Shown here: piece by piece, positions 26,236-59,908 of the stretch | Numbering within the stretch: position 1 is the first letter of the stretch | Layout of the letters: every line of letters starts with the position of its first letter | NCBI GenBank assembly: GCA_964390375.1 | Contig: CAYMIF010000001.1 | Location: forward strand, 45,460-109,459 | Origin: an uncultured Methanosarcinales archaeon | Lineage (GTDB): Archaea; Nanobdellota; Nanobdellia; Woesearchaeales; DSVV01 | DNA length: 64,000 bases | Direction of reading: 5' to 3' | The notes under the pieces: generated by a model | Told to the model about the DNA's origin: nothing | The model's database searches: none | Seen by the model: only the letters and a program-made list of their open reading frames with translations | Position numbers and translations under genes: made by a program

Positions 26236-27414
26236 ATGATGAAAAAGAAGCTATTGGACCTGATGAGGGGAATGGTGCCTCTGAACAAGAAACTCTCAGA
26301 ACAACTTGATTCGGTTTCGGGGCTGCTCTCTTCGAATGAACTAAAAGAGCTGCGCAGCAATCTGAAGACCAAAAGAATCAGGATGGAGGCTGCTTCGTTT
26401 GATGTGTCACCTGATATGGTAGCTGAACCCCCTGCTTATCCCAGGTTCCTGACAAAGCATGATGAGCTAGCAGGCCTGTGCGAGAGGATAAACAAGAAGA
26501 TCTCTTCAGGCATAAAGAGCAGGGTATTCTCAGAATTCTCAAAAAAAGCAAAAGATGTGATACCTAAGTTCATAGGCCGCGGAATTGTCGGGCTTGATCT
26601 TGTAAAATGTGCATGCGCGATACAGCTGTTTTCAAAGGACCCTTTCCATATACTCTGTCTTGGGGACCCGGGAACTGGCAAGACTGACATAATCAGGTCT
26701 GCTGCCGGCCTGCATCCGATCAATGCATTCGGACTTGGCTCAGGCACATCTGGCTCCGGCCTGACAGTCACTGTAAGGGGCAATGAGGTGCAAAAAGGAC
26801 TGCTTGCCATGGCAGACGGCGGAATCTGCGCTATCGACGAGCTGAACCTAATGGAGCAGAAAGACCGGGCATCGCTGTATAACGCTATGGAGAAAGGATT
26901 CTTTACATATGACAAAGGAGGGAAGCATTACAAGTTCGATGCCAGGATACGCGTTCTTGCAACAGCTAATCCTAAAGGTGACCGCTTCGACGGAAAGACC
27001 GTCAATACTCTGAAGAAACAATTGCCTTTTGATCCTGCACTTCTAAGCAGGTTCCATTTGGTTTTCCTTATCAGGAAACCCAATCTTGAAGAATTCATGA
27101 AGATAAGCAAGAAAATCGTCTCAGGCAAGAAGAAGAGCGAGCAGCCAGGAAACATCAGTTTCATTTCTGACTATATAGAGTTCTGCCAGGAATTGGAAGT
27201 GGAGATGCCTGCCAAATATTCTGAGCAGATAGTGAATTTCATCGCAGAAATCAAGAAGAACGAAGAGAAATATCTGATCGAAATCTCTCCGAGAACTGTT
27301 GTCGGGCTTTCGCGAATGGTCATGGCTGCTGCCAGGATGAGGTATGACAAAACAGTCAAGGATGAGGATGTGTGGCTAGTCATGGATATACTTAAAAGAA
27401 GCCTGGAAATCTGA
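26236..27414 (+). CDS. MCM-family AAA+ ATPase lacking the N-terminal OB/Zn DNA-binding domains (mini-MCM)
   Basis: Walker A ILCLGDPGTGKTD. Walker B GICAIDELNLM. MCM-specific DRASLYNAMEKG (compare DRTSIHEAMEQQ). Sensor-1 VLATANP. Arg finger LLSRFHLVFLI. Lid EISPRTVVGLSRMVMAAARMR. The 392-aa protein has only about 100 aa ahead of the ATPase core. Confidence 0.7.
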   Translation: MMKKKLLDLMRGMVPLNKKLSEQLDSVSGLLSSNELKELRSNLKTKRIRMEAASFDVSPDMVAEPPAYPRFLTKHDELAGLCERINKKISSGIKSRVFSEFSKKAKDVIPKFIGRGIVGLDLVKCACAIQLFSKDPFHILCLGDPGTGKTDIIRSAAGLHPINAFGLGSGTSGSGLTVTVRGNEVQKGLLAMADGGICAIDELNLMEQKDRASLYNAMEKGFFTYDKGGKHYKFDARIRVLATANPKGDRFDGKTVNTLKKQLPFDPALLSRFHLVFLIRKPNLEEFMKISKKIVSGKKKSEQPGNISFISDYIEFCQELEVEMPAKYSEQIVNFIAEIKKNEEKYLIEISPRTVVGLSRMVMAAARMRYDKTVKDEDVWLVMDILKRSLEI

Positions 27415-27488
27415 ACCATATATCTTCTTTGACCGTCAATTACGAAACCTTTTTATACTATGTTAAAAATGTTAATATCAGAGGGGAA

Positions 27489-28118
27489 ATGATAAAATTA
27501 TTCAAAAAACTGGTCAATCGGCTGTTTCGAGACCTTTTCCGCGAAAAAAAACAGAGAAAGCTCGGGCTATATGGACCTCCGAACGGCGGTAAGACCACGC
27601 TTGCTAACAGAATATGCATGGACTGGCTCGGGCAGGAGATGGGAAAGGCCTCAAATGTTGCGCACGAGACCCGTGAAATCCAGATCAAAGAACAGATCAC
27701 GATAAAATCAAAAGGAAAAGAACTTGCATTCAATCTCGTCGATACACCTGGAATCGCGACAAAGATAGACTATGAGGAATTCTTGAAATCCGGAATGAAA
27801 GAGAAGGATGCGAAAAAACGAGCAAAAGAAGCGACAAAGGGAGTTATCGACGCGATAAAATGGCTTGACAACATGGATGCAGTGATCGTTGTCCTGGATT
27901 CTACAATGGACCCTTATTCACAGGTAAATATCACTATAATCGGAAATCTTCAGGCACGTGACATACCTGTCATGATCGTCGGAAACAAGGTCGACCTGAA
28001 GAAATCAAACATCAAGAAATTACAATCTGCTTTCCCACAGTATGAAGTCGTGGGAATATCTGCTAAGTACGGCAATAATATCGAGGATTTTTATGAAGCA
28101 CTCCTCAAGATTGCCTAA
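27489..28118 (+). CDS. small GTP-binding protein (G domain only)
   Basis: G1 GPPNGGKTT. G3 DTPG. G4 NKVD. G5 SAK. The start was chosen at MIKLFKKL. It lies 15 nt downstream of the MCM-like gene. Confidence 0.65.
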   Translation: MIKLFKKLVNRLFRDLFREKKQRKLGLYGPPNGGKTTLANRICMDWLGQEMGKASNVAHETREIQIKEQITIKSKGKELAFNLVDTPGIATKIDYEEFLKSGMKEKDAKKRAKEATKGVIDAIKWLDNMDAVIVVLDSTMDPYSQVNITIIGNLQARDIPVMIVGNKVDLKKSNIKKLQSAFPQYEVVGISAKYGNNIEDFYEALLKIA

Positions 28119-28127
28119 AAAAGAACG

Positions 28128-28544
28128 GTGAATCGCATGCTGACACTACAATTCGTACCATATTCAGAGATTGAAGCACTGAATTCTTCCAAGAGAATAA
28201 AGAAGCTTCTTGGAATTGTCAAGGACAATAATATAGTGCTTCTCGAAGGCAGGCTGCGAAAGTCAGAAGAAACTGATCTGATCAAAAGGACAATGGAGGA
28301 GATCAGCGACGATTTCAAGGGAATCGAGCTTGGTGTCATATTTCCAGATAAAAAAGAGATGAAATTCTTTGCGATGCTCAAAGACAAGTTCATCAAGATG
28401 GTGCTTGGAGATCGCCAGGGATTCACTGTCATCGGTCCTGCGACAATCGTCAAGGAAATCAAGCAGGATCCTGGCAAGCTTCAACTCCTGACCCAAAACG
28501 AGCCCAGAAGCAGGAAAAAGGAGAGGAAGAAGAAAGGCAAATAG
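28128..28544 (+). CDS. DUF2073-like archaeal conserved protein
   Basis: 138 aa. This is my recollection of the DUF2073 family, which usually neighbours a GTPase and a Zn-ribbon protein in archaea. It has a basic C-terminal tail. Confidence 0.4.
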   Translation: MNRMLTLQFVPYSEIEALNSSKRIKKLLGIVKDNNIVLLEGRLRKSEETDLIKRTMEEISDDFKGIELGVIFPDKKEMKFFAMLKDKFIKMVLGDRQGFTVIGPATIVKEIKQDPGKLQLLTQNEPRSRKKERKKKGK

Positions 28545-28607
28545 GACAGCCCATGAGCGCTGATTTCTTCAAAAGCTTTAAATAGATAGCTGGATTCTAT
28601 TCATTCT

Positions 28608-29003
28608 ATGCCACACCAATGCGTCAGATGCGGAACATTCTATGAAGACGGAGCAGGAGAGATTCTAAAGGGCTGCTCATGCGGAGCGAAGCTTTTCTTC
28701 TATGTAAAACAGGAGAAGCTGGACAAGGCCAGGCAGATGTCTGCCAAGCTCAGCGATGACGAGAAGCATCAGATCGAGAAGGATGTCCTGGATATCGTCG
28801 GGATGGAGCCTGACGAGGACAGCTCAGTTGTCCTTGACATAGAATCAGTCAATGTATATCAGCCCGGCAAGTTCGAGATAGACCTCGTAAAGCTGTTTGA
28901 CAAGGACAAGCCGCTTGTCTATAAGCTTGAGGAAGGGAAGTATGTCATCGATGTGGCTGAGAGCTTCATGAGATCGAAAGATTATATTGAGGAGAAGAAG
29001 TGA
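28608..29003 (+). CDS. Zn-ribbon protein (DUF2072-like)
   Basis: CVRCG...CSCG forms a four-Cys ribbon at the N-terminus. 131 aa. It follows the DUF2073-like gene. Confidence 0.45.
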   Translation: MPHQCVRCGTFYEDGAGEILKGCSCGAKLFFYVKQEKLDKARQMSAKLSDDEKHQIEKDVLDIVGMEPDEDSSVVLDIESVNVYQPGKFEIDLVKLFDKDKPLVYKLEEGKYVIDVAESFMRSKDYIEEKK

Positions 29004-30197
29004 TCATTTGCTGCTCATTATTTCTATCATATCCCTGTGCTGAAGGACATGGTCCTTGGCTATGGGCATCTTCTTTCTGACATCAATCGCCTTTATGAAA
29101 TTGTCGCCGATGTCTGAATGTATCTTGTAGGCGAAATCAAGTGCTGTAGCACCCGCGGGCATCAGGAAACAGTCCGGGATTATGTTTCCATGCTGGTCTG
29201 CAAGCTTGCTGACTCCTCCAGGGAATATCGCCTTGTAGCCAAGAAGGTCAAAGACTGCCTTGTCCAGGACATCCTGTACACCTGAAGAGCCGAACTTTTT
29301 TAAGACATTGGCTTTGATGAACTCGAGCGCGGCTTTCTGCTTGTCTGATAGGTCTCCTGTTGCCTGAAAGTCATCTGAGCCCGGGGTGTAGTCTATCAGC
29401 TTATGCTTGGAGGCCTCCTTTAGGGCAAGCTCGGATTCTGCAGAACAGCCCACTATTATCGTGTCTGGGAACTTTTCCTTTAGCCTGTCCAGGTTCTCTG
29501 CACCTGTCTTTGTGTCAACCTTGTTGGCTGCGATTATCATCGGCTTTGTCTTTTTCCGAAAGTCTGATATCAGGGACTTGAGCTCGTCCTCTGTCCAGGT
29601 GTTTATCGGCTTTTCTCTGAGGCTGAGAGATTTCATGCTCTGCTTTACCATGTCCTCTGTGAGCATGAGGCCGGAGAACTGCTTGGCTATCTCCTTTTCA
29701 GGGTCCTTGTGCTCCTGAGCCAGTGTCCTTGAGAAACGCTCCCATACCTTCTTGAATATGGACAAGTACCATTCCTCAAGCTCTTTTTCCAGAAATCTTA
29801 TGTCATTTGCAGGATCATAGGAGCCTGGCTCTACCGGCTCTCCCTTCTCATTCGTGCTGCCGGATGCATCGACCACATGGATCAGGGCGTTTGCCTGCCT
29901 GAGGTCGTCCAGGAACTGGTTTCCCATGCCCTTGCCTTCATATGCTCCAGGCACCAGACCTGCTACGTCTATCAGATCAATCGGCACGAACCTTGTCTGG
30001 CCTGTACAGAAGCCTTCTCTTGGATCGCATTTGGTGTTGAATTCCCTGCATACTGCCTCTACGCGCACGAAACTGATCGCGTGATTGGGCTTAATGGTCG
30101 CGAAAGGATAGTTCGCTATCTCTACGTCCATCAGGGTCGCTGCCTTGAAGAAAGTGCTCTTGCCTGTGTTTGGTTTTCCGACTACACCGATAAGCAT
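29004..30197 (-). CDS. Obg-family GTPase, YchF/OLA1-like, with a C-terminal TGS domain
   Basis: G1 VVGKPNTGKSTFF. G3 DVAGLV. A long helical insertion precedes G4 NKVD. The TGS-like C-terminus reads ALDFAYKIHSDIGDNFIKAIDV. Confidence 0.65.
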   Translation of the reverse strand: MLIGVVGKPNTGKSTFFKAATLMDVEIANYPFATIKPNHAISFVRVEAVCREFNTKCDPREGFCTGQTRFVPIDLIDVAGLVPGAYEGKGMGNQFLDDLRQANALIHVVDASGSTNEKGEPVEPGSYDPANDIRFLEKELEEWYLSIFKKVWERFSRTLAQEHKDPEKEIAKQFSGLMLTEDMVKQSMKSLSLREKPINTWTEDELKSLISDFRKKTKPMIIAANKVDTKTGAENLDRLKEKFPDTIIVGCSAESELALKEASKHKLIDYTPGSDDFQATGDLSDKQKAALEFIKANVLKKFGSSGVQDVLDKAVFDLLGYKAIFPGGVSKLADQHGNIIPDCFLMPAGATALDFAYKIHSDIGDNFIKAIDVRKKMPIAKDHVLQHRDMIEIMSSK

Positions 30198-30297
30198 CTT
30201 ATTGCAGCGAGAACAATGGAGTGTATTTATATTTTTTGTAAAACTGGGCTATTATGATTGCATTAGATTTAAATAGTATGTTCCATGCAATTAAAAT

Positions 30298-31029
30298 ATG
30301 CTCAAGGCAGATTTCCACATACATATATCTGAAGATCCTTATGACCGGGATGCTGCGCGTTATTCAGGAAAGGAACTCATAGACCGTGCTGCAGAACTTG
30401 GATATGATGTCTTGTCAATCACCATGCATTCCACTTATTTTGAAGATTTTCGGCTGACAAAATATGCCCGCAAGAAAGGTATACTTCTGATACCTGGTAT
30501 TGAACTTCGAGTTTCTGACCGGCATGTGCTTATAATCAATCCAGATCCTGATCAGCTCTATCATGTCAAGAAGCTATCTGATCTGAGGAAAATCAAGGGA
30601 ACCGGGTGCCTGATCATGCCAGCTCATCCTTATCTTTATTTTGGAAAAGACCGTGAAAGAGAGCTTGAGGTGAATGCAGAACTGTTCGATGCCATCGAAT
30701 TCTGCCATTTCCATCTCGGACCTATTGATTTTAATAAAAAGACCGAGAATTTCTCAAGAAGGCATAAATTACCAATGTTTGGATCCTCTGACACACATCT
30801 TAAATGCCAGTTCGGAACCACTTATACGATGATCGATTCAAAAAAAGATACTGATTCAGTGATATCTGCTGTGAAAAAAGGAAAAGTCAAGGTGGTCTCT
30901 CCTGATCTTAAAATAACAATCTTCCTTAGAATATTCCTGCGGTTCAGCATCTCTATGCTGAGAACCATTGTGTTTGGGAAGAAGAAACAAACTGAGAGAT
31001 ATTCTGTTATAAAAAAGGGCTTTGTGTAA
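30298..31029 (+). CDS. PHP-domain metal-dependent phosphoesterase. Its last codons and stop lie inside a MITE terminus
   Basis: DFHIHIS, MPAHP and GSSDTH are PHP His/Asp ligands. The stop codon sits within the inverted repeat of the element at 31018-31196. Confidence 0.6.
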   Translation: MLKADFHIHISEDPYDRDAARYSGKELIDRAAELGYDVLSITMHSTYFEDFRLTKYARKKGILLIPGIELRVSDRHVLIINPDPDQLYHVKKLSDLRKIKGTGCLIMPAHPYLYFGKDRERELEVNAELFDAIEFCHFHLGPIDFNKKTENFSRRHKLPMFGSSDTHLKCQFGTTYTMIDSKKDTDSVISAVKKGKVKVVSPDLKITIFLRIFLRFSISMLRTIVFGKKKQTERYSVIKKGFV

Positions 31030-31196
31030 AAAGTACTACTTCGCTTACTCCCTAAGCTGCGCCTGGCCCTACGCCTTGGCCCGCAGACCTGCCATGTAGG
31101 GCGTGCGCCAACCATAGATGGTTGGCTTAGCCCAACTGAGAATATTGCCTAAAGATATATATTCTCGTGGCACAGACGTACTTTTTACACAAAGCC
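31018..31196 (+). mobile_element. 179-bp MITE-like element, GGCT-terminus family, variant 2
   Basis: A perfect 19-bp inverted repeat GGCTTTGTGTAAAAAGTAC / GTACTTTTTACACAAAGCC. It is flanked by ATAAAAAAG at 31009-31017 and 31197-31205. It shares the core CGCCTGGCC...TGGCACAGACG with variant 1 but has a longer internal structured module. Confidence 0.6.
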
Positions 31197-31205
31197 ATAA
31201 AAAAG

Positions 31206-31327
31206 GGCTATTATGAAATCCTATACTACTACGTTTTTACTGCGTAAAAACTTCGCCTGGCCCCGAGAATATTTATTTCATAAATATTCTCTCTCGTGGC
31301 ACAGACGCATAGGATTTCATAATAGCC
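31206..31327 (+). mobile_element. 122-bp MITE-like element, variant 1, directly abutting the variant-2 copy
   Basis: Termini GGCTATTATGAAATCCTATAC...ATAGGATTTCATAATAGCC. Flanked by ATAAAAAAG at 31197-31205 and 31328-31336. It is nearly identical to the reverse-oriented copy at 50627-50748. Confidence 0.65.
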
Positions 31328-31373
31328 ATAAAAAAGTAAAAATTTATATATCTTAAAACACATTTATTTTATC

Positions 31374-31964
31374 ATGAGCGTAGACATAGAGGTGCATGTT
31401 TCTGAAGTCAAATCGACAAACATATTCCAGGTCAACAGGATATATGAAGACCTGCATGAATGGTTCATGATGAAGAACTATGCATCCAATTCAGACCAGG
31501 ATTTTCCTGAGAAGTTCTTTTGGGAACAAAGAAGCCAGAACCAGGGAAAGGAATTCTGGATATGGTGGAGACTGCAGAAAGGAGAAAAGAGTAACAGCTT
31601 TGTACAAAGACACATAGATATAGATTTCCATGGCGTGGGCATCACTGATGCAGAGGCAATGTGGAAAGGCCAAAAATACAAAGTCAATAAAGGTAAACTT
31701 GAGATATTGATCAAAGGATGGATACAATTCGATCCAGAAGATAAATGGCAGAATGGGATCCTTGGACCGTGGCTTGAGATGTTCTGGAAGAGATGGCATG
31801 GACCACAGTTCAGAAGACATAAAAGAGAGCTTTTAGGTGATATCGCGACAGTACAGGAGATCTGCAGGCAGTTCTTTGATCTTCCGGCCAGAGGAGGAAG
31901 GAAGAAGTCATTCTCTGCTGTCAGAGGAATAGAAGAGAACTATGATGAAGTCGTGTATAAATGA
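31374..31964 (+). CDS. hypothetical Trp-rich protein
   Basis: 196-aa ORF bracketed by MITE copies. No motif recognised. Confidence 0.35.
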   Translation: MSVDIEVHVSEVKSTNIFQVNRIYEDLHEWFMMKNYASNSDQDFPEKFFWEQRSQNQGKEFWIWWRLQKGEKSNSFVQRHIDIDFHGVGITDAEAMWKGQKYKVNKGKLEILIKGWIQFDPEDKWQNGILGPWLEMFWKRWHGPQFRRHKRELLGDIATVQEICRQFFDLPARGGRKKSFSAVRGIEENYDEVVYK

Positions 31965-31992
31965 TTACCCCTGATTTTTCTTGCACAGAAGA

Positions 31993-32106
31993 GGCTCCAT
32001 CTAATAAATACTACTCCGCTTGCTGCGCAAGCTTCGCCTGGCCACGGGAAGCTTTATTGCATAAACCTTCCCTCCCTTGGCACAGACGCATTTATTGGAT
32101 GAAGCC
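31993..32106 (+). mobile_element. 114-bp MITE-like element, variant 3
   Basis: Termini GGCTCCATCTAATAAATAC / GCATTTATTGGATGAAGCC (16 of 19 bases match). Perfect 9-bp direct repeats CACAGAAGA at 31984-31992 and 32107-32115. The core is hairpin(GCTTGC..GCAAGC)-CGCCTGGCC-hairpin(GGGAAGCTTTAT..ATAAACCTTCCC)-TGGCACAGACG. Confidence 0.55.
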
Positions 32107-32232
32107 CACAGAAGAGCAAAGTTTTTAAATGAGGGCCAAACTTAGGAGGAAATAAAGCATCCTATGCTGCCGAAGCATCATTCAAAGATTTGCGGTCGCT
32201 TCGGGTGCGTTGCATAGGAATACTTTAAATAG

Positions 32233-32336
32233 GCCCCCGTAGCATAGTAGCTATTGCGGCAGACTTGTATCATTTTGAATCATAGATTCGTTTTTTAGAA
32301 ATCTGCAGGTCGTGGGTGCAAATCCCACCGGGGGCT
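32233..32336 (+). tRNA. intron-containing tRNA, anticodon read as TGT (Thr), with a ~31-nt intron after position 37
   Basis: Acceptor stem GCCCCCG/CGGGGGC. Anticodon stem GCAGA/TCTGC. Loop CTTGTA followed by intervening sequence 32270-32300. T arm GTGGG-TGCAAAT-CCCAC. Discriminator T. No encoded CCA. The isotype call depends on where the intron is placed. Confidence 0.7.
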
Positions 32337-32349
32337 TGCTATCTTCTTG

Positions 32350-35300
32350 CTATGCCTTCTTTAAAGATTCATATACCTTGTGCTTATCCTTTGCATTGCT
32401 GAGATATAAAGCATCCTTTAAATGGGTCTTTGACCAGCCCTTCTTCAGAAGATTTTCTGCCAATTTCCTGTGATCCTTGGTCTTGGTGTTGAAAAGGAAG
32501 ATTATTGGCTTTATGTTCTCCAGCTCCTGGGTATATCTTTTCACTGCGTCCTTTGTGAAGTAATGATGCTTGAGTATCCTTTCAGAGCCGTGAGAATGCA
32601 GGATGTTGGTGTATGCATAGTATTTGCTGAACTCCGAGTATATCTGGCTTGCAGCCTGGGGGCTGAGCCCTGCTTTTGCTATCTCTTTTCCAAGCATCTT
32701 CGGCGAACAGTGGACCCTGAGCAGGCTGAAGGCAACATCGTCCGGGTCCTTTTGGACCATGAGCTCCTGGATCATCTCAGAAAGAACCTTTGAAAGCCCC
32801 TTGCTGTAATATTCCTTGTATCCTTCATCTATCAATATGGTGTATGATATGAGGTTGATGTCATATGAATGATGTATCAGATAGTTTATCAGATGATGAG
32901 GGTCTGCCTTCCTGTCCATGCCTTTGTCAAGCTCTTTTTTTATCCTCTTCTGCTGGTCCTTGTATCTTTTTTGTCTTAATTTTTCCGGCGTGAACCTGGA
33001 ATGATGGAGGAAGTTTGCTATCTCAGACTTGTCAAAAAGCCAGATGTGATACTTGTGGAACCCAAACTCGTTGTTGGCATGAAGCTCGCTTATGAATGCA
33101 TAGAGCATGTATATGTGCAGCCAGATGTAGACTGCTATCTTCATCAGATCCAGGATGTAGTCAAAAAGCAGGTAGTTGAGAGTGAGATCGGGTATGACCT
33201 TGCTGTAAAGTATGATTGAATGATAGATGAAATTCTTCAGGAAGAACAGTGTGTAGACGAAGACCAGCAGTATCGCTATCGTGACAGTCTTTATCTCGAT
33301 GATCTTTTTATGCTTCCTTGTCACAAGATATGCCCATATCCCGACAGTCGCTGAAATCAATGAGAGTGCAAGGATGTTGAGATTGAAGCTAATACTGCTG
33401 AAGTACATGCTGAAATAGAACAGGATTGCTATTGCAGGGATGACATGAGTTATGATATCCATCAGGTGGTTGTGCTTTCTTATCATGTGGGCCACTATGA
33501 ATACAAGCAGGATGCCTGCAATTATCATCCCCGGGATGTCAGGCCTTATCGCTTCTGGCAGTGTCTTTATTACAATCTCGTTTCCGACCACAAGATTGCT
33601 GTTGATCTTCTTTATCTGAAATATCGGCGTGAGTATGAAGAAGACCAGGGATACTGCAAATGATATCAGTGTCCATCTTGAGAACGAAAGCCTCTTTGGC
33701 TCTACCGTGTCCTGGGCATTGCGGTAGAATATGTGTGAGTAGATCTTGAACGGTATGTAGAACAGGATGAGGATCGCGATCATATTCATTACATAAATGA
33801 GGTATGTTGCCAGAGGGTCTGCGGTGCTCTGCATAATGAGGTCGTAGACAGACGGAGACTGGGCAGTAAAGCCCTGTGCGTATATCTCTGGCTGAGGCAT
33901 GAATGGCAGGAGGCTTGAGAGTATGAAGATTATGAATCCAAGGCCGATTATGTAGAATATCCTGATGGAGATGGATACCCAATATGTTCCCTCGTCCTGG
34001 AGCATGACGATTATGTCGCGGACAAAATCCTCGATAGCGTTGAATGCTTCAGTAAGCGAACTGAGGGTGAGTTTTCTGTATCTTATGACATGGTAGATCA
34101 TGAATATCAGGGCGACTGAAATGAGGATTATGGAATCAGTCGCTATGGAGAATCCTTCGATTATCATCTGGAAGAAGATGAAGAACGTGATTATGATGAT
34201 TATGATGGTCTTTATGATCCTGAATGGCGAATAATTGCCTTTGAGAAGGTTGGATGCGAACGAACTCTTGTCCTTGTTCCTTATTATGAGCCTGTATGAC
34301 AATATAGAGATTATGACAAACAATGAGATCAGGGCGATGCCTGTGTAATCCTGGGTCATGTCCATCAGATACAGGATGGTCTTTACAGCCCTTCCGAAGA
34401 ATCCGTACTTTCCGAAGAGGCCTATGAATATCTCCTCAAGCGCCGGCAGCCACCAAAGAGAGCAGAATATGAGGATCAGGGCAGTCGTTATCCTGCTCCT
34501 CTTTCCGAAGAGACGCTCTGAGATGTTGGTCTTTAGTATGAGGATGAATGCCAGCAGAAGCGACATCATCTTCTTGACAAAGTCCAGGTCTCCGAGCATG
34601 CCCATGATGTCGAGGATGCTCAAGGCCAGGAGAAAGATGAAATAGAGCAGGATGAATTCCCTTATGCTCCAGACCAAGGGCTTTAATATAGGGTGCTTAT
34701 TTGCGTGGTCTTTTAGCTTTCCTATGTTTGTTGTGTTGACCAGGACTATTATAACTATGAATACAAGGAAGAAATATGCAAGGGTGAGGTAGTCCAGTAG
34801 CTTGGGAGGCTCGCCGAATCTTGTGACAATGCTTGCAACCAGGGCAGTGACTGTCACCTCTTCGTCACAGTTTATGTCCTCGACCTGCTTTATTTTAAGC
34901 TTCAGCTCCATCTCATCGTCAATCTCCTCGAAATGCACGAATATCTCTGGGTCAGCTTTTGTTATCGTGAAATTGAAGTTCGCGTCAATGACCTGCTCTG
35001 CATATTCATGGGTTAGCATCTCGACTAAGCATTTGGGGATGTGGATTGGCAAACCTACTCCTACAGCTTTCTTGTTGTCGTCCCTGGGCTTTATCTTGAC
35101 TGTGGCCTCAGCAGAGCCGTTGTCATAGATGACTGTTGTGGTGTTGGTCTGGATAGCCTGCTTTGCGAGCTCCTTTGCCTTGTATATCTCGAAATCATCA
35201 AGATAATCATCTATCCTGCTCTGCTCCTTTATCATGAGCTCATAACTGATCCTTCCTATCTCTTCCTCAGTCATGGACTTATTTATCGTGTAGTTGGTGT

Positions 35301-38300
35301 GGATCTCCTCGTAAGGCCCGAGGTCTCCGAGGGCAAATTCTATCTTTGGATCCCGCTGGATTATGGTGAAATTGACATCTGAGGAGATGTGGTCTGTTGT
35401 GTTGATTATGTCCTTTGGTATCGTTATCCTCAGCCTGGCCTGAGCTTTTTTCAGCGGTGTCGGGTTCCTGATAGTATCTATTATCTCTGTGTGGTTCTCG
35501 TGAACCCTGAATCTTGTGTGCTTCTTTATCTGGTTTGAGAGCTCGTAGGTGATGGAGTAGTTCTGTATTATGAATGCAGGCGGTTCTTTGATCTTCCGGC
35601 CAGAAGAATCGCTGTCATCATCCTGCTCTTCTGGGGTGGTCTCTTCTGCTGGCTCTTCTGTCTGGGGTATGATGTCTGGCGAGCCTCCTCCGAATGAACT
35701 GCTGCCGGAGCTGACAGATGAGCCTTCGTCTTCATCTTCATCTTCACCTACACATGTGCAGGTGTTTGTGCCTGAATGAGCCCATGTGCCTCTGTTTCCG
35801 CAGACTCCGCCTGTTATTTTTCCGCCATCTTCGTCATCACAGTCGAAGATGTCTATGTTCGTGCAGATCCCGGCGTAGGCTATACCTATCTGGCCGTCGT
35901 CGTCATTGTCCCAGTCCTCGTCTGCCAGCTGGTCGCAGTCATTGTCGTATGAGTCGCAGATCTCTGCTGTACTGTAGCTTACCTGCGCTGACCAGGCGCT
36001 CTTTTGGTGGCTTGAGTCGATGGACTGGACCTGGACATAGGCGCATCGCGGAGGTATGTCGAGAGATATCTCCTGCAAAAGCTGCATGTTTCCGAAGTAG
36101 CCCTGAGGCGGGTTGGTCGAAAGAGGGTTAAGGCTAGAGAGGATGTTTTGGTTGGTCGGGCTGGAGCCTATCTTTAGGTTATAGTAAAGGACAGGGGATT
36201 CTGCATCTGAGCCTGCGGTCCAGTTGATTTTCATGCGGCTGTTGTTGTATGAGATGTTTACTGCTGTCGGCGGAGCGGGGAGCGTGTTGTTCTTTAGTTC
36301 ATTTGCATCAGAGCGATAGATGCGGGTGTTGGCAGACTGGGATTCGTTGAAGCCGGTGTAGAAGATGTCGAGGTTGTTGTCGTTGTTGTAGTCGGCGAAT
36401 GCGAGGGAGCCTGCCCATGATCCGTCGAAGGTGTTGAATGTGTCTTCGATGAAGGTTGTGCCGTTGCTGTAATAAAGTTTTGTTATTGAATCTGTCCATG
36501 TGCCTCTTGTCGTACCTGCTAATAATAGGTCAAGAAGGCCGTCGTTATTGTAATCTCCCAGTGTGAGGCTTCCTTTCCAGACTGCAGTCAGGTTCTGGGA
36601 CCACGCCGGCGAATATGTGAGGTTATTTGCGTTGTTTTGGTATACCTTTGCTATCTTATCTGTACAGTTAGCTGGAGAGCTGGTTCCTGAACTGCATCCA
36701 ATGAGAACAATGTCCATGTATCCGTTGTTATCTATGTCACCTGATGTAATGTGGCCGAATTTCACTCCTGTCAGGTTTTGGGTGTTTGTGAATGATGCTG
36801 CTTGATTGTTCATGTATACTTTGGTCGTGAATTCGTCATCTGCATTGCCATACCTGCCAGAGACAATGATATCTGTGAAATTGTCATTATCAAGATTTAC
36901 TGCGTTTACTGAACATTCTGTGACACCCATGAAATTTATCACTGATTTTGAGAAGGAATCTCCGTTGTTTGTGTATAATGATGTCGAATAGGCGGCACTA
37001 TCGCTGGTTCCACAAGTGATGAGGTCTATGAGCCCGTCATTGTTGTAGTCCAGCCATGCGTGGGAGGAATAATATACAGGATTTATTCCGTGGGAAGAGT
37101 CATCATAGGTCCAGCCGGATTGGTATCTGATGATGTAGAGTTTTTTTTCAATTGGATCAATCTGTCTTTGACCTGAGGTGATTATGTCGTATGTTTCGTC
37201 ATTGAAAGGATCTGCCAAAGAGATTCCACCGTACATTAGGTCAGGGAGATTTATCTCATCATGAGGTGTGAAAAATGCATTGGTGTTTGAATAGACATAT
37301 CCTTTGGTTGTTGTTTTATCCAATACTTCTGGACCTGATATGAAAATATCATGATAATGATTTGAATCCAGGTCAGCTAACAATAATGAGCTTCCGAATG
37401 ATGTACCATACACTCCCTGCTCATCCAGGTCGTATGCTGTGGAATTCGGCTTGACTGTTATCGAAAATGTGTGGTTCAGTGTCTCGTATCCAGACATGTT
37501 GCATCTGATCGTGACCTGCTTGTCTCCAAGGGATGTGAAATTGTAATCAATAGTATGGACTGCTCCTGTGTAGGACATGTTGTGCCATGTGCTATCCAGG
37601 CTTATGGTGCAGTTTTCTGATATCGGAAGGTGGGATGTCGTGTTTGAGTAGTTTGCAGTAAAGGTGACAGTTTGGTTTATCATGAGGCGGGATGGTGAAT
37701 AATCTGTCTCTAGAAGGCTGTTTGATGCAGCAGAATAATTGCTGAATCCAGAGACATTGAATGTGAGATTTCCATTAGTGTAATCAATCACTGTGCAGTC
37801 TGAGCAGACCTGGTCGTTTCTGAGGATTGCCGGAATCGCAGAGAAATTCAGGTTGAATATAGTTATGTTGGCTCTTCTGTTCAGGCCCTGGGCAGCGGAA
37901 ACATCTATGTCTATATTATTCTGTGAGATGTTCACTATCGAGTTTAAGTCTAGGTTGGAGACGTCGATATTTTCATTAAACATTATCATGCCGAATCCTG
38001 GCAAGCCGATCGATGCGGCTGAGACATTGGATACATCAGAGACTTCAGAGAAGTTTGTTGTGAGGGAGTTGTAATAGTTTGAGAATATCGGTTCAGAAGA
38101 CCTGTTGAGAGTGATTGTGAGGGCTGTGTTGGATGAGTGCGTGTAATCCATGTTGTATTGGTTGTATCCGGATCTTTGGAAGTAGATGGTGTAGTTTTGT
38201 ATTGAGGATGTTCCGTTGTTCCTGTCGCTTGTGAGGACAAGCCTTGCCTTGCCTGGACTGTCTGTTGCGGTGTCGTAATGCATTCGGTTGTCTGTATCGT

Positions 38301-40623
38301 ATGCCTTGACTGCAGTTCCAGCGAGAAGTGAGCCGGTCTGGTTCATTACTGTGAGATCAAGGTAATATCTTATCAGAAGAGAGTTGTTCTGTATGTTCAG
38401 ACTGGAATATGTGGTGTTGGTTATTGTGTTGTTGATTCCATAGTTTGTTATCGCATCAAGTGTTGAGTCTGTTATCGTGCTCTGGGTTGAATTGAATATG
38501 ATCGGCGAGCTTATCGTGGATGATGTGGCATTCAATGTACCATCCACTGTTATGGAACTGGCTGTGAGCGTGGAATTTATGAGTGTCATGCTGTTGTTTA
38601 TCTTAATGTCTGAGGTCACGACAATGTTTTGATCCACATAAGTGCAGGTGTTTGCTATTGTCCAGGAGCTGTTTGTGGGCTGGCAGGAGTCAGGATAATA
38701 GGTCTGCACAGGGCTCCAGCCTGAGATGGAATAGGCAGCATCAATGCTTTGCACCTGCCAGTAGTAGGTAGTATTTTCAGAGATGTTGAGTGCATACCAT
38801 TCCTGCTGCATGGCATTTCCAAGATAACAGTAGTTTGAGCCAGAACAGCCTCCGAATTTCCCTGATAATACGTCTCCCTGGCCAGGTGATGTGCCTACAC
38901 GAAGATTGTAGTAGAGATGGTCGGTCGTGTCGTCAGTCGCTCCGCTCCAGGTGAAGTTCAGAAGATTTGTGTATGATGTGGTGAATGCAACTGGTGCAGA
39001 GGGTCTTGTGTTGCTGCGGTATAAGGAGAAGTTGTTGGTGTAGAGGATTGTCTTGTCATTCCCTGTTGTCAGGATGTCGAGGTCTCCGTCTTCATCATAG
39101 TCTGACATGGCAATCGATCCTTTTCCTCCGAGGCCATTGTTTACTGCCTCGAAATCAAGGCTTCCTTTTCTGATGAAATGGGTGTGGTTGTTCTCGTAGT
39201 ACAGGATTATGTCTGAGCCGTTGTATCCGGCAAGCAGAAGATCCATGTAGCCGTCGTTGTTGAGGTCTCCGAGGAAACTGGAGCTTTCGATAATTCCCTG
39301 CAGCTCCTGTGCATGCTCGAACTGGTTGTTCTGCCATCTGTAGACAATGGTCGTGTATGCGTCTGTTCCATTGTAGCCGGAGACTACTATGTCGAGATCT
39401 CCGTCTTGATTGATATCTCCTACTGTGGCAGAACCACGGTAGGTGTCGTTGAAGGATTGCTGTTCTGTGAGGGTGAAGCCGGAGTGGGAGTAGAGCTTCA
39501 TTTGGGCTCCGGATGGGAGTTCGTTGGTAGATCCCTGTGTCAAAAGGATATCATTTATTCGTATGTGATGACTATAAGTCAATCCAGTGAGACTAGTGAT
39601 ATTGGAGAAATTTATTCTGTTATTCTTATCTATATTATGTCTTATTATAACTATGGTTTCTTGCTTTAGTCCGGACTTTGCCAAATCATTATAACCATCT
39701 TTGTCATAATCAAATATTAGCATCTCACCATTAACTGTTCCATCAAGTTCCTGGAATTCAGAATAATTGTTATTGATGTTCTTAAAGATTTTTAGAAAAT
39801 GGTTTGAAGGAAAACCGCTTTCATGATGGTTATTTATCATCAAGTCAAGATCCTCGTCGTTGTCAATGTCTGCAAAGGCTATGTTTCTTTCTTCTCCTGT
39901 TGTGATTGATATGCCAGAATCCTTGGAGAAGCTGCCAGGCGCATCCTGCTCATAGAAGAAAGTGCTTGTTCCGGTCATGAAGAAGTCCAGGTCATCGTCA
40001 TTGTCGTAATCTGCCCAGGCAACGACTGATTTTGAGCCAATATCATCGAAGTTGGTCTTGGAAAATGTATCAAGTGGATTTGGGAAAATCTCAAAGCTTT
40101 CGTTGGTCTTTGTTGTGTTGTATATGCCGGTTGAGTTGCATATCACTGAATATGAATAATTACCTGCAGGAAATGTCCTGTTGTAGACATAGATGCTTCC
40201 GTTGGAGCGCATAAGGACATATGCAGGACTATCACTGAAATTTATGTAGCACTTGTTCTGGTCGTGGTCTGTGAGGATGGTTCCGTCAGTCTGGGTGTAG
40301 ACTGCGACAAAATGATGCTGTTCCCAATGGTAGGGGTGGAAATTCTCTGCGTAATTGTCTGCAAGCGGGATATATTCAGAGAGGAATGTCGTTAGGTTTG
40401 AGTTGTATGTGTAATTCTCTGCTGATGCCAGGACACTGTAGTCGTATCCTATCAAGTCTTCTGAGAAGGGAAATATGCCTATCAATGAAGAGATGAATAT
40501 CATTGCGGCAATGAACAAGAAGAACCATTGCTTTTGGGATATGACAGCCTGATTTTTAGAAGAGATTGTATTAACAAAGCTTTGGTCTTTGACCCTCCCC
40601 TCTTCTTTGCACCTTTTTTTCAT
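32350..40623 (-). CDS. giant (2757 aa) protein. It has an N-terminal signal/anchor, multiple FG-GAP/integrin-alpha-like beta-propeller repeats, an acidic linker, a large polytopic membrane domain with about 18-20 TM helices, and a cytoplasmic C-terminal region
   Basis: Repeated D-x-D-x-D-G-x-x-D motifs (DYDNDDDLD, DIDNDEDLD, DINQDGDLDIVV, DLNNDGYMDLLL, DYDEDGDLDIL, DYNNDGLLDLLL and others). Dense NxS/T sequons. A D/E-rich linker. A long hydrophobic block (LAYFFLVFIVIIVLV ... IAVYIWLHIYMLYAFI) precedes a ~330-aa soluble tail. Confidence 0.7.
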   Translation of the reverse strand: MKKRCKEEGRVKDQSFVNTISSKNQAVISQKQWFFLFIAAMIFISSLIGIFPFSEDLIGYDYSVLASAENYTYNSNLTTFLSEYIPLADNYAENFHPYHWEQHHFVAVYTQTDGTILTDHDQNKCYINFSDSPAYVLMRSNGSIYVYNRTFPAGNYSYSVICNSTGIYNTTKTNESFEIFPNPLDTFSKTNFDDIGSKSVVAWADYDNDDDLDFFMTGTSTFFYEQDAPGSFSKDSGISITTGEERNIAFADIDNDEDLDLMINNHHESGFPSNHFLKIFKNINNNYSEFQELDGTVNGEMLIFDYDKDGYNDLAKSGLKQETIVIIRHNIDKNNRINFSNITSLTGLTYSHHIRINDILLTQGSTNELPSGAQMKLYSHSGFTLTEQQSFNDTYRGSATVGDINQDGDLDIVVSGYNGTDAYTTIVYRWQNNQFEHAQELQGIIESSSFLGDLNNDGYMDLLLAGYNGSDIILYYENNHTHFIRKGSLDFEAVNNGLGGKGSIAMSDYDEDGDLDILTTGNDKTILYTNNFSLYRSNTRPSAPVAFTTSYTNLLNFTWSGATDDTTDHLYYNLRVGTSPGQGDVLSGKFGGCSGSNYCYLGNAMQQEWYALNISENTTYYWQVQSIDAAYSISGWSPVQTYYPDSCQPTNSSWTIANTCTYVDQNIVVTSDIKINNSMTLINSTLTASSITVDGTLNATSSTISSPIIFNSTQSTITDSTLDAITNYGINNTITNTTYSSLNIQNNSLLIRYYLDLTVMNQTGSLLAGTAVKAYDTDNRMHYDTATDSPGKARLVLTSDRNNGTSSIQNYTIYFQRSGYNQYNMDYTHSSNTALTITLNRSSEPIFSNYYNSLTTNFSEVSDVSNVSAASIGLPGFGMIMFNENIDVSNLDLNSIVNISQNNIDIDVSAAQGLNRRANITIFNLNFSAIPAILRNDQVCSDCTVIDYTNGNLTFNVSGFSNYSAASNSLLETDYSPSRLMINQTVTFTANYSNTTSHLPISENCTISLDSTWHNMSYTGAVHTIDYNFTSLGDKQVTIRCNMSGYETLNHTFSITVKPNSTAYDLDEQGVYGTSFGSSLLLADLDSNHYHDIFISGPEVLDKTTTKGYVYSNTNAFFTPHDEINLPDLMYGGISLADPFNDETYDIITSGQRQIDPIEKKLYIIRYQSGWTYDDSSHGINPVYYSSHAWLDYNNDGLIDLITCGTSDSAAYSTSLYTNNGDSFSKSVINFMGVTECSVNAVNLDNDNFTDIIVSGRYGNADDEFTTKVYMNNQAASFTNTQNLTGVKFGHITSGDIDNNGYMDIVLIGCSSGTSSPANCTDKIAKVYQNNANNLTYSPAWSQNLTAVWKGSLTLGDYNNDGLLDLLLAGTTRGTWTDSITKLYYSNGTTFIEDTFNTFDGSWAGSLAFADYNNDNNLDIFYTGFNESQSANTRIYRSDANELKNNTLPAPPTAVNISYNNSRMKINWTAGSDAESPVLYYNLKIGSSPTNQNILSSLNPLSTNPPQGYFGNMQLLQEISLDIPPRCAYVQVQSIDSSHQKSAWSAQVSYSTAEICDSYDNDCDQLADEDWDNDDDGQIGIAYAGICTNIDIFDCDDEDGGKITGGVCGNRGTWAHSGTNTCTCVGEDEDEDEGSSVSSGSSSFGGGSPDIIPQTEEPAEETTPEEQDDDSDSSGRKIKEPPAFIIQNYSITYELSNQIKKHTRFRVHENHTEIIDTIRNPTPLKKAQARLRITIPKDIINTTDHISSDVNFTIIQRDPKIEFALGDLGPYEEIHTNYTINKSMTEEEIGRISYELMIKEQSRIDDYLDDFEIYKAKELAKQAIQTNTTTVIYDNGSAEATVKIKPRDDNKKAVGVGLPIHIPKCLVEMLTHEYAEQVIDANFNFTITKADPEIFVHFEEIDDEMELKLKIKQVEDINCDEEVTVTALVASIVTRFGEPPKLLDYLTLAYFFLVFIVIIVLVNTTNIGKLKDHANKHPILKPLVWSIREFILLYFIFLLALSILDIMGMLGDLDFVKKMMSLLLAFILILKTNISERLFGKRSRITTALILIFCSLWWLPALEEIFIGLFGKYGFFGRAVKTILYLMDMTQDYTGIALISLFVIISILSYRLIIRNKDKSSFASNLLKGNYSPFRIIKTIIIIIITFFIFFQMIIEGFSIATDSIILISVALIFMIYHVIRYRKLTLSSLTEAFNAIEDFVRDIIVMLQDEGTYWVSISIRIFYIIGLGFIIFILSSLLPFMPQPEIYAQGFTAQSPSVYDLIMQSTADPLATYLIYVMNMIAILILFYIPFKIYSHIFYRNAQDTVEPKRLSFSRWTLISFAVSLVFFILTPIFQIKKINSNLVVGNEIVIKTLPEAIRPDIPGMIIAGILLVFIVAHMIRKHNHLMDIITHVIPAIAILFYFSMYFSSISFNLNILALSLISATVGIWAYLVTRKHKKIIEIKTVTIAILLVFVYTLFFLKNFIYHSIILYSKVIPDLTLNYLLFDYILDLMKIAVYIWLHIYMLYAFISELHANNEFGFHKYHIWLFDKSEIANFLHHSRFTPEKLRQKRYKDQQKRIKKELDKGMDRKADPHHLINYLIHHSYDINLISYTILIDEGYKEYYSKGLSKVLSEMIQELMVQKDPDDVAFSLLRVHCSPKMLGKEIAKAGLSPQAASQIYSEFSKYYAYTNILHSHGSERILKHHYFTKDAVKRYTQELENIKPIIFLFNTKTKDHRKLAENLLKKGWSKTHLKDALYLSNAKDKHKVYESLKKA

Positions 40624-42198: not shown

Positions 42199-42789
42199 AT
42201 GGTAGGATTAAGTGTTAATGAAAGGAAAGCGCTTCTGGTGCTGCTAAAGGATTTTACTAGCTACTATAATGCTAATTCATTGGCAAATGAGATAGGAATC
42301 AGCCATGTGGGAGCACAGAAGATGTTTAGGCGGTTTGAACAAGATGGCGTGACTGTTTCAAAGAAAATCGGGAAGTCAATAGTGCATAAGATCAGGCTGG
42401 ATGATGATTACAATTCTAAGCTGCTGTCCTTTCTCTTGGCTGATGAAGCAAATAATTTCAGAAGGTGGAGAGAGGAATTCAGAAGCCTGTCTACGGGAAA
42501 CAGGATTGTCATGATGTTTGGCTCAGCACTGAAAAACTATAAGGAGGCAAGGGATATAGATCTCATGCTGGTCTTGCCTTTTGATCAGTCAACAGATATT
42601 AATAAAGCAGTAGATGAAAAAAGAGAAATCCTTCCGAAAAAACTGCATGTAATAAAGCTGAGGATAGAAGATTTCCAGAAAAATCTTAAAAAAAAGGAAG
42701 ATGTATTCGTAGACGTTATCAAGAATGCAGTAGTACTCTATGGACAAGACCAGTTCGTAGAGGTGCTTAAAACTGTCACAGGCTTCTAA
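42199..42789 (+). CDS. wHTH plus minimal nucleotidyltransferase (MNT) domain protein
   Basis: N-terminal HTH (ANSLANEIGISHVGAQKMFRRF). The MNT signature is MMFGSALKNYKEARDIDLMLVL (GS...D.D motif). Confidence 0.55.
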   Translation: MVGLSVNERKALLVLLKDFTSYYNANSLANEIGISHVGAQKMFRRFEQDGVTVSKKIGKSIVHKIRLDDDYNSKLLSFLLADEANNFRRWREEFRSLSTGNRIVMMFGSALKNYKEARDIDLMLVLPFDQSTDINKAVDEKREILPKKLHVIKLRIEDFQKNLKKKEDVFVDVIKNAVVLYGQDQFVEVLKTVTGF

Positions 42790-42793
42790 TCAT

Positions 42794-43291
42794 ATGAAAT
42801 GGTGCCTGAAAAAGGCTCAGCGTGAGATTCTGGAATGTGAAAAGAAAGGCCTTAGAAAGAAGCACAGAGGCCTACTGAAAACCAAACCAAATATCTCTGA
42901 AGCAAAAAAGCATATACTGAAAGCCAGACATAATTTTCGTGTAGTGATTATCCTCGAGAAGGAGGATATCTTTGATTGGTCTGTCAATGCAGTTTTTTAT
43001 ACTATCTATCATTGTTTCTTGGCTATTGCTTTTAGATTCGGCTATGAGAGCAGAAACCAGTCTTGTACCATCTCTTTGATCCAATGCTTGATTGAAAAGG
43101 GTATGATAGATCTTGATATGAAATTCGTCAATCTCCTCAAATACAATGAAAAGGAAAACAGTATCATAGATATGAGGGAAGAATATACATATGGGATTGA
43201 GATTGATATCGCTGATAATAAGATCATGAAAGAACTTATCCAAGACTGCAGGGAAGTTATCGATATGGCTATGAGGATAGTGCATGATTAA
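42794..43291 (+). CDS. HEPN-like domain protein
   Basis: 165-aa helical protein immediately downstream of the MNT gene. AKKHILKARHNF...AVFYTIYHCFLAIAF is HEPN-like. Confidence 0.4.
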   Translation: MKWCLKKAQREILECEKKGLRKKHRGLLKTKPNISEAKKHILKARHNFRVVIILEKEDIFDWSVNAVFYTIYHCFLAIAFRFGYESRNQSCTISLIQCLIEKGMIDLDMKFVNLLKYNEKENSIIDMREEYTYGIEIDIADNKIMKELIQDCREVIDMAMRIVHD

Positions 43292-47923: not shown

Positions 47924-48046
47924 GGCTATTATGAAATCCTAGCCTACTTCACCGATGTTTCACATCGGTTCCGCCTGACCCCGAGAATATTTACTAATGT
48001 AAATATTCTCTCTCATGGCACAGACGGCTAGAATTTCGCAATAGCC
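47924..48046 (+). mobile_element. 123-bp MITE-like element, variant 1
   Basis: Termini GGCTATTATGAAATCCTAGCC...GCTAGAATTTCGCAATAGCC. It is flanked by A-rich direct repeats AAAAAAAAG (47915-47923) and A9G (48047-48056). Confidence 0.6.
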
Positions 48047-50626: not shown

Positions 50627-50748
50627 GGCTAATATGAAATCCTATGCGTCTGTGCCACGAGAGAGAATATTTATGAAATAAATATTCTCGGGGCCAGGCG
50701 AAGTTTTTACGCAGTAAAAACGTAGTAGTATAGGATTTCATATTAGCC
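50627..50748 (-). mobile_element. 122-bp MITE-like element, variant 1, reverse orientation
   Basis: It is the reverse complement of the 31206-31327 copy apart from a few substitutions. Flanked by TGCTTGTCC (50618-50626) and TGCTTGTTC (50749-50757), which match at 8 of 9 positions. Confidence 0.65.
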
Positions 50749-59629: not shown

Positions 59630-59908
59630 GGCTATTATGAAATCCTATCCTACCTGCGCTTTTGGGAATGAATTCCCAAACCGGTGAGCAAAGCTCACAG
59701 TTTACGCCGCAGAGCAGCGAGGTTGGGCATAAAGCCCAACTAAAAATATTCACTAATGGTTATATATTCCGCCTGGCCCTACGCTCTGGCCCGCAGACCA
59801 GCCATGTAGGGCATGCGCCAACCATAAATGGTTGGCTTAGCCCAACTGAGAATATTGCCTAAAGATATATATTCTCATGGCACAGACGGCTAGGATTTCA
59901 TAATAGCA
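59630..59908 (+). mobile_element. 279-bp composite MITE-like element with variant-1 termini, an extra three-hairpin module and the long variant-2 core
   Basis: Starts GGCTATTATGAAATCCTATCCTAC and ends TAGGATTTCATAATAGCA. Perfect 9-bp direct repeats TCTGTCATG at 59621-59629 and 59909-59917. The internal region matches 31060-31180 of variant 2 and adds hairpins TTGGGAATGAATTCCCAA, GTGAGCAAAGCTCAC and GTTGGGCATAAAGCCCAAC. Confidence 0.6.

Follow-up and report, generated by a model that had tools for sequence, protein, structure and literature searches.

How did two different mobile elements come to stand on one and the same target at the end of a gene, and what kind of element are they? The question is raised by a locus in a 64,000-nucleotide stretch of an archaeal contig (CAYMIF010000001.1; the whole stretch is called the window), where a gene for a PHP-domain phosphoesterase runs directly into two short, unlike repeats, E1 and E2, which share a single 9-bp duplicated target, ATAAAAAAG. 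A third repeat of the same kind, E3, lies farther on, between a conserved open reading frame (ORF196) and a transfer RNA (tRNA) gene. We find that E1, E2 and E3 are MITEs (miniature inverted-repeat transposable elements) with true target-site duplications, and as MITEs they are an ordinary kind of element. Read from their junctions, E1 and E2 would be two successive insertions into one target. We consider it fairly probable, taking all parts together, that a strain-variable gap of this genome was colonised by MITEs, that E1 and E2 were inserted successively and in an end-directed manner, and that the elements carry a strand-specific RNA module.

Two elements on one duplicated target

The positions of E1, E2 and E3 had been given by a sequence-only reading of this DNA, and they hold base for base when the sequence of 30000-33000 is read again and a repeat scan is run (Table 1). 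Its description of ATAAAAAAG occurring three times, with two different elements on one duplicated target, is likewise borne out, as the copies at 31009, 31197 and 31328 all touch the element ends exactly; the perfect duplication of CACAGAAGA that it saw around the third element is found at 31984 and 32107. Both E1 and E2 are bounded by perfect terminal inverted repeats (TIRs), and in the TIR of E3 two positions are A·C mismatches and one is a G·T pair. The only ORFs overlapping E2 and E3 are chance ones of 47-55 aa. Since the internal spacer is identical to both outer duplications, and a unit that came from elsewhere would carry a foreign spacer, the arrangement is best read as two successive insertions. 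The first would have duplicated ATAAAAAAG, that is the last three PHP codons, which were then followed by the TAA stop, so that the junction of the empty site before insertion would have read GTTATAAAAAAG directly joined to TAAAAATTT. The second insertion, in either order of E1 and E2, would have used one of the two copies with exactly the same stagger, and three copies would have resulted.

The PHP gene was said to end inside the inverted repeat of the first element, and so it does. Its 3' end reads ATA AAA AAG in the duplication and GGC TTT GTG TAA in the element, which places G241-F242-V243 and the stop codon within the E1 TIR (31018-31029). Because E1 is the element nearest the gene, it is E1 that supplies the last three residues and the stop. 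Without E1 and E2 the frame would end at the TAA of 31337-31339, directly after ATAAAAAAG, with IKK as its last residues, and had E2 been inserted first, PHP would, as read from the sequence, briefly have had a 13-residue tail. The comparison of PHP C-termini that had been proposed showed them to be variable among orthologues, none of which ends in KKGFV; the nearest homologue is 47% identical. The GC content of the gene (0.39-0.41 versus 0.43 for the window) is not decisive as to whether it is foreign DNA.

The comparison with related genomes, proposed along with it, showed the region to vary between strains. One sister-strain contig (L136) aligns to window positions 31331-31966, 32109-32154 and 32228-32337, and two others carrying the YchF-like GTPase gene (L137, L138) align from 30243 leftwards, with 84-92% nucleotide identity across the aligned pieces. 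Where the window has CACAGAAGA, E3 and CACAGAAGA again, L136 reads tttcttCAGAAGAgcaaac, a clean empty site with the target present once (...tCAGAAGA...), so E3 is a recent insertion; it would have entered independently of the other two. Nothing in the sister strain corresponds to the block of PHP, E1 and E2 (about 30244-31330), which is replaced there: between the breakpoints both flanks lead into glycosylation and sugar-modification genes. The adjacency of ORF196 and the tRNA is kept in three lineages (including L142), and a distant Woesearchaeota metagenome-assembled genome (MAG; JAWABL010000011, L141) has the GTPase on the minus strand, 66 bp, and ORF196 on the plus strand as divergent neighbours, then an intron-containing tRNA. 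The order GTPase–ORF196–tRNA is thus ancestral synteny, and since it is ancestral and the sister-strain breakpoints flank PHP, E1 and E2, insertions into the gap that separates GTPase and ORF196 differ from strain to strain. In this lineage, which the named homologues and the synteny show to be Woesearchaeota-like (DPANN), the gap would have come to hold the PHP gene, and three copies of one non-autonomous DNA transposon family would then have colonised the locus.

What brought E1 and E2 to the same 9 bp can be weighed with the help of a second abutting pair, which lies on an unrelated metagenome contig (L121; 3953-4097 and 4105-4220 as placed by the covariance model) and between whose members there is nothing but the 9-bp duplication of the first (ATAATGTGT, with ATAAAGTGT as its copy on the far side). 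Because in two independent pairs the target exactly touches the end of a resident element, we favour end-directed capture, in which the transposase would engage the resident end and take the adjacent DNA as its target, and give it about an even chance. The same outcome would follow, independently of the resident element, if the transposase prefers A-rich targets like ATAAAAAAG. Another copy in the window does have a very similar duplication (AAAAAAAAG) and the E3 target CACAGAAGA is purine-rich too, but ATAAAAAAG occurs eight times in the window (1.15 expected) and five of these sites are empty, the duplications ACTCACGAC, TCTGTCATG and GAACAAGCA are unrelated to it, and the spacer of the L121 pair is different. 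Since those sites are empty and the other duplications unrelated, we consider a simple preference for the 9-mer unlikely; the insertion hotspot suggested by the sequence-only reading is supported in the modified form of a strain-variable gap within which the targeting looks end-directed, not 9-mer-directed. The further suggestion that E1–ATAAAAAAG–E2 arrived together as a composite unit would account for their abutting in the same orientation, but a unit formed elsewhere would need a 9-bp coincidence for its spacer to equal both outer duplications, the search for further E1–E2 junctions returned none elsewhere in the window, and the L121 pair has its own site-specific spacer; it is very improbable. 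Just as improbable is the view that 31018-32106 was left behind by an element that had integrated at the tRNA gene and that ORF196 is its leftover cargo. The stretch does adjoin a tRNA gene, and ORF196, which had been taken for an orphan, is without an annotated family; however, it has six homologues, one of them at 92% identity, and it is neither an orphan nor leftover cargo because the GTPase–ORF196–tRNA order is ancestral. Moreover, Pfam found no integrase among ten neighbouring ORFs on either side (the adjacent 2757-aa ORF left out), no transposase was seen, the 3' 21-mer of the tRNA occurs once even at up to 3 mismatches and hence forms no direct repeat, and E3 has a duplication and an empty site of its own.

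If inserted directly at the end of a resident copy, the second element would resemble those of the IS30 family, where targeting of inverted repeats makes a new copy land at a resident end and gives tandem elements with junction spacers of 2-3 bp. IS30 belongs to another family, and here two different variants share a 9-bp duplication.

Table 1. Coordinates of the genes, elements, target duplications and further family copies in the window.
Feature	Position	Strand	Length	Remarks
PHP-domain phosphoesterase gene	30298-31029	+	243 aa	Pfam PHP and PHP_C
Target duplication, copy 1	31009-31017	+		ATAAAAAAG; PHP codons I238-K239-K240
MITE E1	31018-31196		179 nt	variant 2 of the sequence-only reading; perfect 19-nt TIR GGCTTTGTGTAAAAAGTAC
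Target duplication, copy 2	31197-31205	+		ATAAAAAAG; common to E1 (right side) and E2 (left side)
MITE E2	31206-31327		122 nt	variant 1 of the sequence-only reading; perfect 19-nt TIR GGCTATTATGAAATCCTAT
Target duplication, copy 3	31328-31336	+		ATAAAAAAG; then TAA 31337-31339
ORF196, conserved hypothetical protein	31374-31964	+		invariant EFWIWWR and HGV motifs
E3 duplication, left copy	31984-31992	+		CACAGAAGA
MITE E3	31993-32106		114 nt	variant 3 of the sequence-only reading; imperfect 19-nt TIR
E3 duplication, right copy	32107-32115	+		CACAGAAGA
tRNA gene	32233-32336	+		Rfam 54.2 bits; 33-nt insertion in anticodon loop
Family copy	3579-3700			duplication ACTCACGAC
Family copy	47924-48046			duplication AAAAAAAAG
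Family copy	50627-50748			opposite orientation; duplication GAACAAGCA/GGACAAGCA
Family copy, long	59630-59908		279 nt	extra hairpin modules; duplication TCTGTCATG

The repeat family and its likely transposase

The window contains seven copies of the family, 114-279 nt long, non-coding, all intergenic and with TIRs of 17-19 nt, and the 9-bp duplication is present at all seven (exact at six, with a single mismatch at 50627-50748), which upholds the description of the elements as MITEs with target-site duplications. A covariance model finds exactly these seven copies in the window and no further ones, its matches to E1 (31018-31198, 23.4 bits), E2 (49.6 bits) and E3 (32.8 bits) all being on the minus strand; the 18-mer of the E2-type TIR occurs 10 times (0.07 expected). 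The modules are combined as a mosaic. E2 and the 3579 copy have the same ends and the same hairpin B with unrelated hairpins A, and E1 and the 59630 copy have a 119-nt stretch in common at 95% identity, including a 65-nt extra module within the B arm, with ends that differ. IS200/IS605-derived palindromic elements and REPINs, which have subterminal hairpins and an HUH transposase and make no target duplication, were considered as candidates and do not fit the clear 9-bp duplications and the terminal inverted repeats. Between E2 and the 50627 copy there are only two differences, at paired positions of the terminal stem (T6/A117 versus A6/T117), and E2 and the 3579 copy have hairpin B loops that are reverse complements of one another (TTC versus GAA). 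These paired changes and the inverted loop suggest hairpin-level DNA processes or recombination between the arms.

The element ends start with GGCT and keep A11, A12 and T17. When 17 distinct ends were set in register against the inverted repeat of IS903/IS102, GGCTTTGTTGAATAAATC, they were identical to it at 7-13 of the 18 positions (most at 10-13); random 18-mers average 4.7 of 18 and reach 12 or more with a probability of 1.5e-4. Thirteen matches were reached by E1 (GGCTTTGTGTAAAAAGTA), by the right end of E3 and by the right end of a copy on another contig (L117). We verified the IS903/IS102 repeat on pSC101, where it lies beside a gene annotated 'IS5 family transposase'. IS903 makes 9-bp target duplications. 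Because IS903-like ends go together with a 9-bp duplication, the elements were most likely moved in trans by a DDE transposase of the IS5 family (IS903/ISH1-type) with a 9-bp stagger. The known elements closest to these are IS903/IS102 (IS903 group) and MITEs derived from IS5-family elements, and the likeness to IS903/IS102 comprises the GGC termini, the similarity of the 18-nt end in register and the length of the duplication. The differences are the DPANN host, the elaborate conserved internal module, of which there is none in the IS102 ends read (L140), and two points taken up below, namely the lack of a transposase gene here and the 8-bp duplications in other lineages.

A conserved core and a strand-specific fold

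Inside the TIRs all copies have CCTACTYC, CGCCTGGCC and GGCACAGACG in common, and the architecture runs, written as RNA, from CCUACUYC through hairpin A, CGCCUGGCC and the segments X, X' and X'' to GGCACAGACG. As a sequence pattern the family can be given as GGC-N(10-20)-CGTCTGTGCC...GGCCAGGCG...GRAGTAG. The core was found in at least 13 archaeal MAG loci and 17 metagenome loci, the MAGs being labelled, by their submitters, Methanosarcinales, Woesearchaeota, Nanoarchaeota, Nanobdellati (locus GC 53%) and Euryarchaeota SM23-78. A first genome scan had used a loose pattern, most matches of which were chance ones in GC-rich bacteria, and the viral contigs searched contained no copy of the family. 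Across distant archaeal lineages, in genomes of 27-53% GC, the core junctions are invariant and the helices between them are wholly different in sequence.

Covariation was examined on structure-blind MAFFT alignments of 13 equal-length copies of the 'long' class (A3/A4). On the (+) strand, 90.7% of the cells of hairpin A (16 pairs) and helix X:X'' (13 pairs) form a pair, and when the partners were slid by 1-3 columns only 25-41% did so (25-45% over both strands). Two-sided changes were seen in 19 pairs on the (+) strand (19-20 over both strands), a number reached by none of 500 shuffles. On the reverse strand 95.6% of the cells pair. The alternative pairing X:X' is supported less well, at 77-79% within its helices. 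When 32 distinct copies were aligned on the covariance model, 94.7% of cells paired and 26 of 37 pairs were compensatory, in an alignment that is fitted to the structure and favours it. MAFFT/RNAalifold on all 25 copies, which are of mixed length, misaligned the hairpins and recovered nothing but the core helix. The segment X that follows CGCCTGGCC (in the window, for example, 31262-31297) can pair either with the adjacent X' or with the distal X'', and both pairings covary; being mutually exclusive, they are a possible conformational switch.

The fold is not equal on the two strands. Over many columns and copies the mismatches of the internal helices in the (+) orientation are A·C in 22 cases and G·T in 2, and since they are nearly all A·C, they are wobble pairs on the other strand. 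In 31 of 31 copies the reverse strand folds more stably, the mean difference being 11.8 kcal/mol; for E1 the strand that folds better is the minus strand of the window. On the reverse strand the U·G in the core helix CGUCUG/CAGGCG is invariant, and the internal loop 'AAC/AAC' turns into G·U, U·U and U·G, a conserved GUU/GUU motif. The terminal stem shows no clear wobble asymmetry, which fits a double-stranded transposase site. Wobbles confined to one strand suggest a fold at the RNA level, and we take it that a DNA transposon carries a selected single-strand fold, most likely RNA. For E1-E3 such an RNA would have the sequence of the window's minus strand and be antisense to both PHP and ORF196. 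It would serve the element, in our first guess as a regulatory or antisense RNA that has come down from the parent insertion sequence.

The same features could be taken to mean that these are mobile genes for structured RNA, whose machinery would recognise the fold and not the TIRs, by way of an RNA or single-strand intermediate or of an RNA-guided or RNA-templated enzyme, the TIRs being then the closing stem. The invariance of the core across genomes so different in GC, with helices rewritten under compensation, the strand-specific wobble asymmetry and the difference of E2 from the 50627 copy by nothing but a compensatory pair of the terminal stem would all be expected of such genes, and neither a DDE partner nor an Rfam family was matched. 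Yet the duplications are of fixed length and the GGC...GCC termini are in register with the IS903 repeat, both hallmarks of DDE cut-and-paste, the terminal stem is without clear wobble asymmetry, no poly-A and no duplication of variable length was found, and neither a reverse transcriptase nor any other candidate enzyme turned up. We therefore rate this explanation as improbable. Similarly doubtful, in our estimate, is the wider idea of a new kind of mobile structured RNA of DPANN and other archaea, in which the invariant three-part core and the covarying, one-strand-specific helices with their two mutually exclusive pairings would be what functions, the fold being either needed for mobility or a switch-like RNA carried by IS5-like ends. 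An Rfam search over the elements gave nothing at E<=10 save one chance snoRNA fragment, the only true match being the tRNA gene. Readings of the core as a bulge-helix-bulge (BHB) intron, hammerhead, twister, k-turn or signal recognition particle (SRP)-like RNA were set aside, as their defining motifs are absent and Rfam has no match. A literature search for the core sequences returned primer matches only, and one on DPANN MITEs and RNA motifs and on IS903 target choice returned nothing specific and no description of such a family.

Several points weigh against the combined reading of a colonised gap, end-directed insertion by an IS5-like transposase and an RNA module. Neither the window nor about 300 kb of archaeal loci showed a transposase of any kind: with the IS102 transposase as query, tblastn found nothing at E<=10 in the window and 39 archaeal, metagenome and sister-strain loci, TIR searches of the window and the archaeal loci returned no autonomous partner, and Pfam found no transposase among the neighbouring genes. 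The IS5 assignment would draw on the ends and the duplication length only. Because other lineages have duplications of 8 bp (AAATTTCA in L092, TGTTTTGC in L134), related but non-identical enzymes, of more than one transposase type, may be involved across lineages; the first element of the L121 pair has a 9-bp duplication, as in the window genome. End-directed targeting is argued from two tandem pairs, and of these the L121 pair has boundaries with an uncertainty of about 2 nt and a second member for which no duplication of its own can be recognised. The sister strains are without the whole PHP block and hence provide no empty site for E1 and E2. Finally, the strand-specific fold could act in single-stranded DNA instead of RNA, or may be needed in a single-stranded DNA or RNA intermediate of mobility, and the orientation of the elements relative to neighbouring genes is inconsistent.

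Neighbouring features and significance

The genes on the right of the locus yielded some further observations. ORF196 has no match in Pfam, PHROG or NCBIfam, and its AlphaFold model (pLDDT 70.5) matches no PDB fold at E<=0.001. A stretch within it (31863-31895, sense) recurs at 35575-35607 with 31/33 identity, on the antisense strand of the 2757-aa gene, and does not extend beyond. The tRNA, which the sequence-only reading had described as intron-containing, was missed by ARAGORN, and its anticodon is read from the sequence as UGU (Thr). Just upstream of it (32150-32232) about 60 extra bases are missing from the sister strain L136 and contain the inverted repeat ATCCTATGC...GCATAGGA; a fourth, decayed MITE at this place was rejected, as the alignment scores lie inside the shuffled range. 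In L136 (4806-4957) a second, direct copy of the 3' half of the tRNA with about 36 downstream bases follows after about 95 nt, at the end of the contig; an integrated element may have duplicated its attachment site there, or the assembly may be at fault. The 2757-aa ORF (32350-40623) lies on the strand opposite to the tRNA, with its end 14 nt downstream of that gene, and is one of two giant ORFs in the window, the other being at 4110-10238 (2042 aa). At 42199-43291 a 196-aa protein of unknown family, of which ORF196 is not a paralogue, is encoded 4 nt ahead of a HEPN-domain protein, and the two may form a toxin-antitoxin or defence pair.

On the left, the edge of the PHP block (30244-30252) differs from the sister strain by an indel of 9 nt, CTGGGCTAT, and GGCTATTATGA at 30247 equals the first 11 nt of an E2-type end and is partly present in the sister strain. 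A MITE end at this edge of the strain-specific block was considered and dropped as too weak, since only the 9-nt indel is specific. The stretch 26236-30197, which adjoins the locus, encodes an MCM-like AAA protein, a small GTPase, OapC and the YchF-like GTPase, and the sister strain has OapB as well; a replication origin may be close to these origin-associated genes.

Among known repeats, the bacterial Correia/NEMIS, ERIC, BOX and RUP elements are likewise short, intergenic, multi-copy and modular, and their transcripts fold into long stem-loops. They are not known outside narrow bacterial taxa. In contrast, the present family has an invariant core and covarying helices that span several archaeal lineages, pairs by wobble on one strand only and has the two mutually exclusive helices X:X' and X:X''. 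The archaeal MITEs listed in one review are from Sulfolobus, Halobacterium, Haloquadratum and Desulfurococcus, and none of those listed there is from a DPANN lineage (PMC10969869). Those, too, are non-autonomous inverted-repeat elements of archaea, set beside ours by description only.

MITEs are hardly described in DPANN archaea, and this locus provides an example of one that has rewritten the C-terminus of a gene without destroying the gene. From the two abutting pairs it would seem that new copies are steered to the DNA beside a resident end, something that can be tested in an archaeal IS5-like system. An invariant core with compensated helices over genomes of 27-53% GC, together with wobble pairs confined to one strand, implies selection on a folded single strand, probably RNA, that travels with a DNA transposon. 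If confirmed, this would be a widespread structured non-coding RNA motif in lineages with almost none known, and could be used to trace gene flow between DPANN and other archaea.

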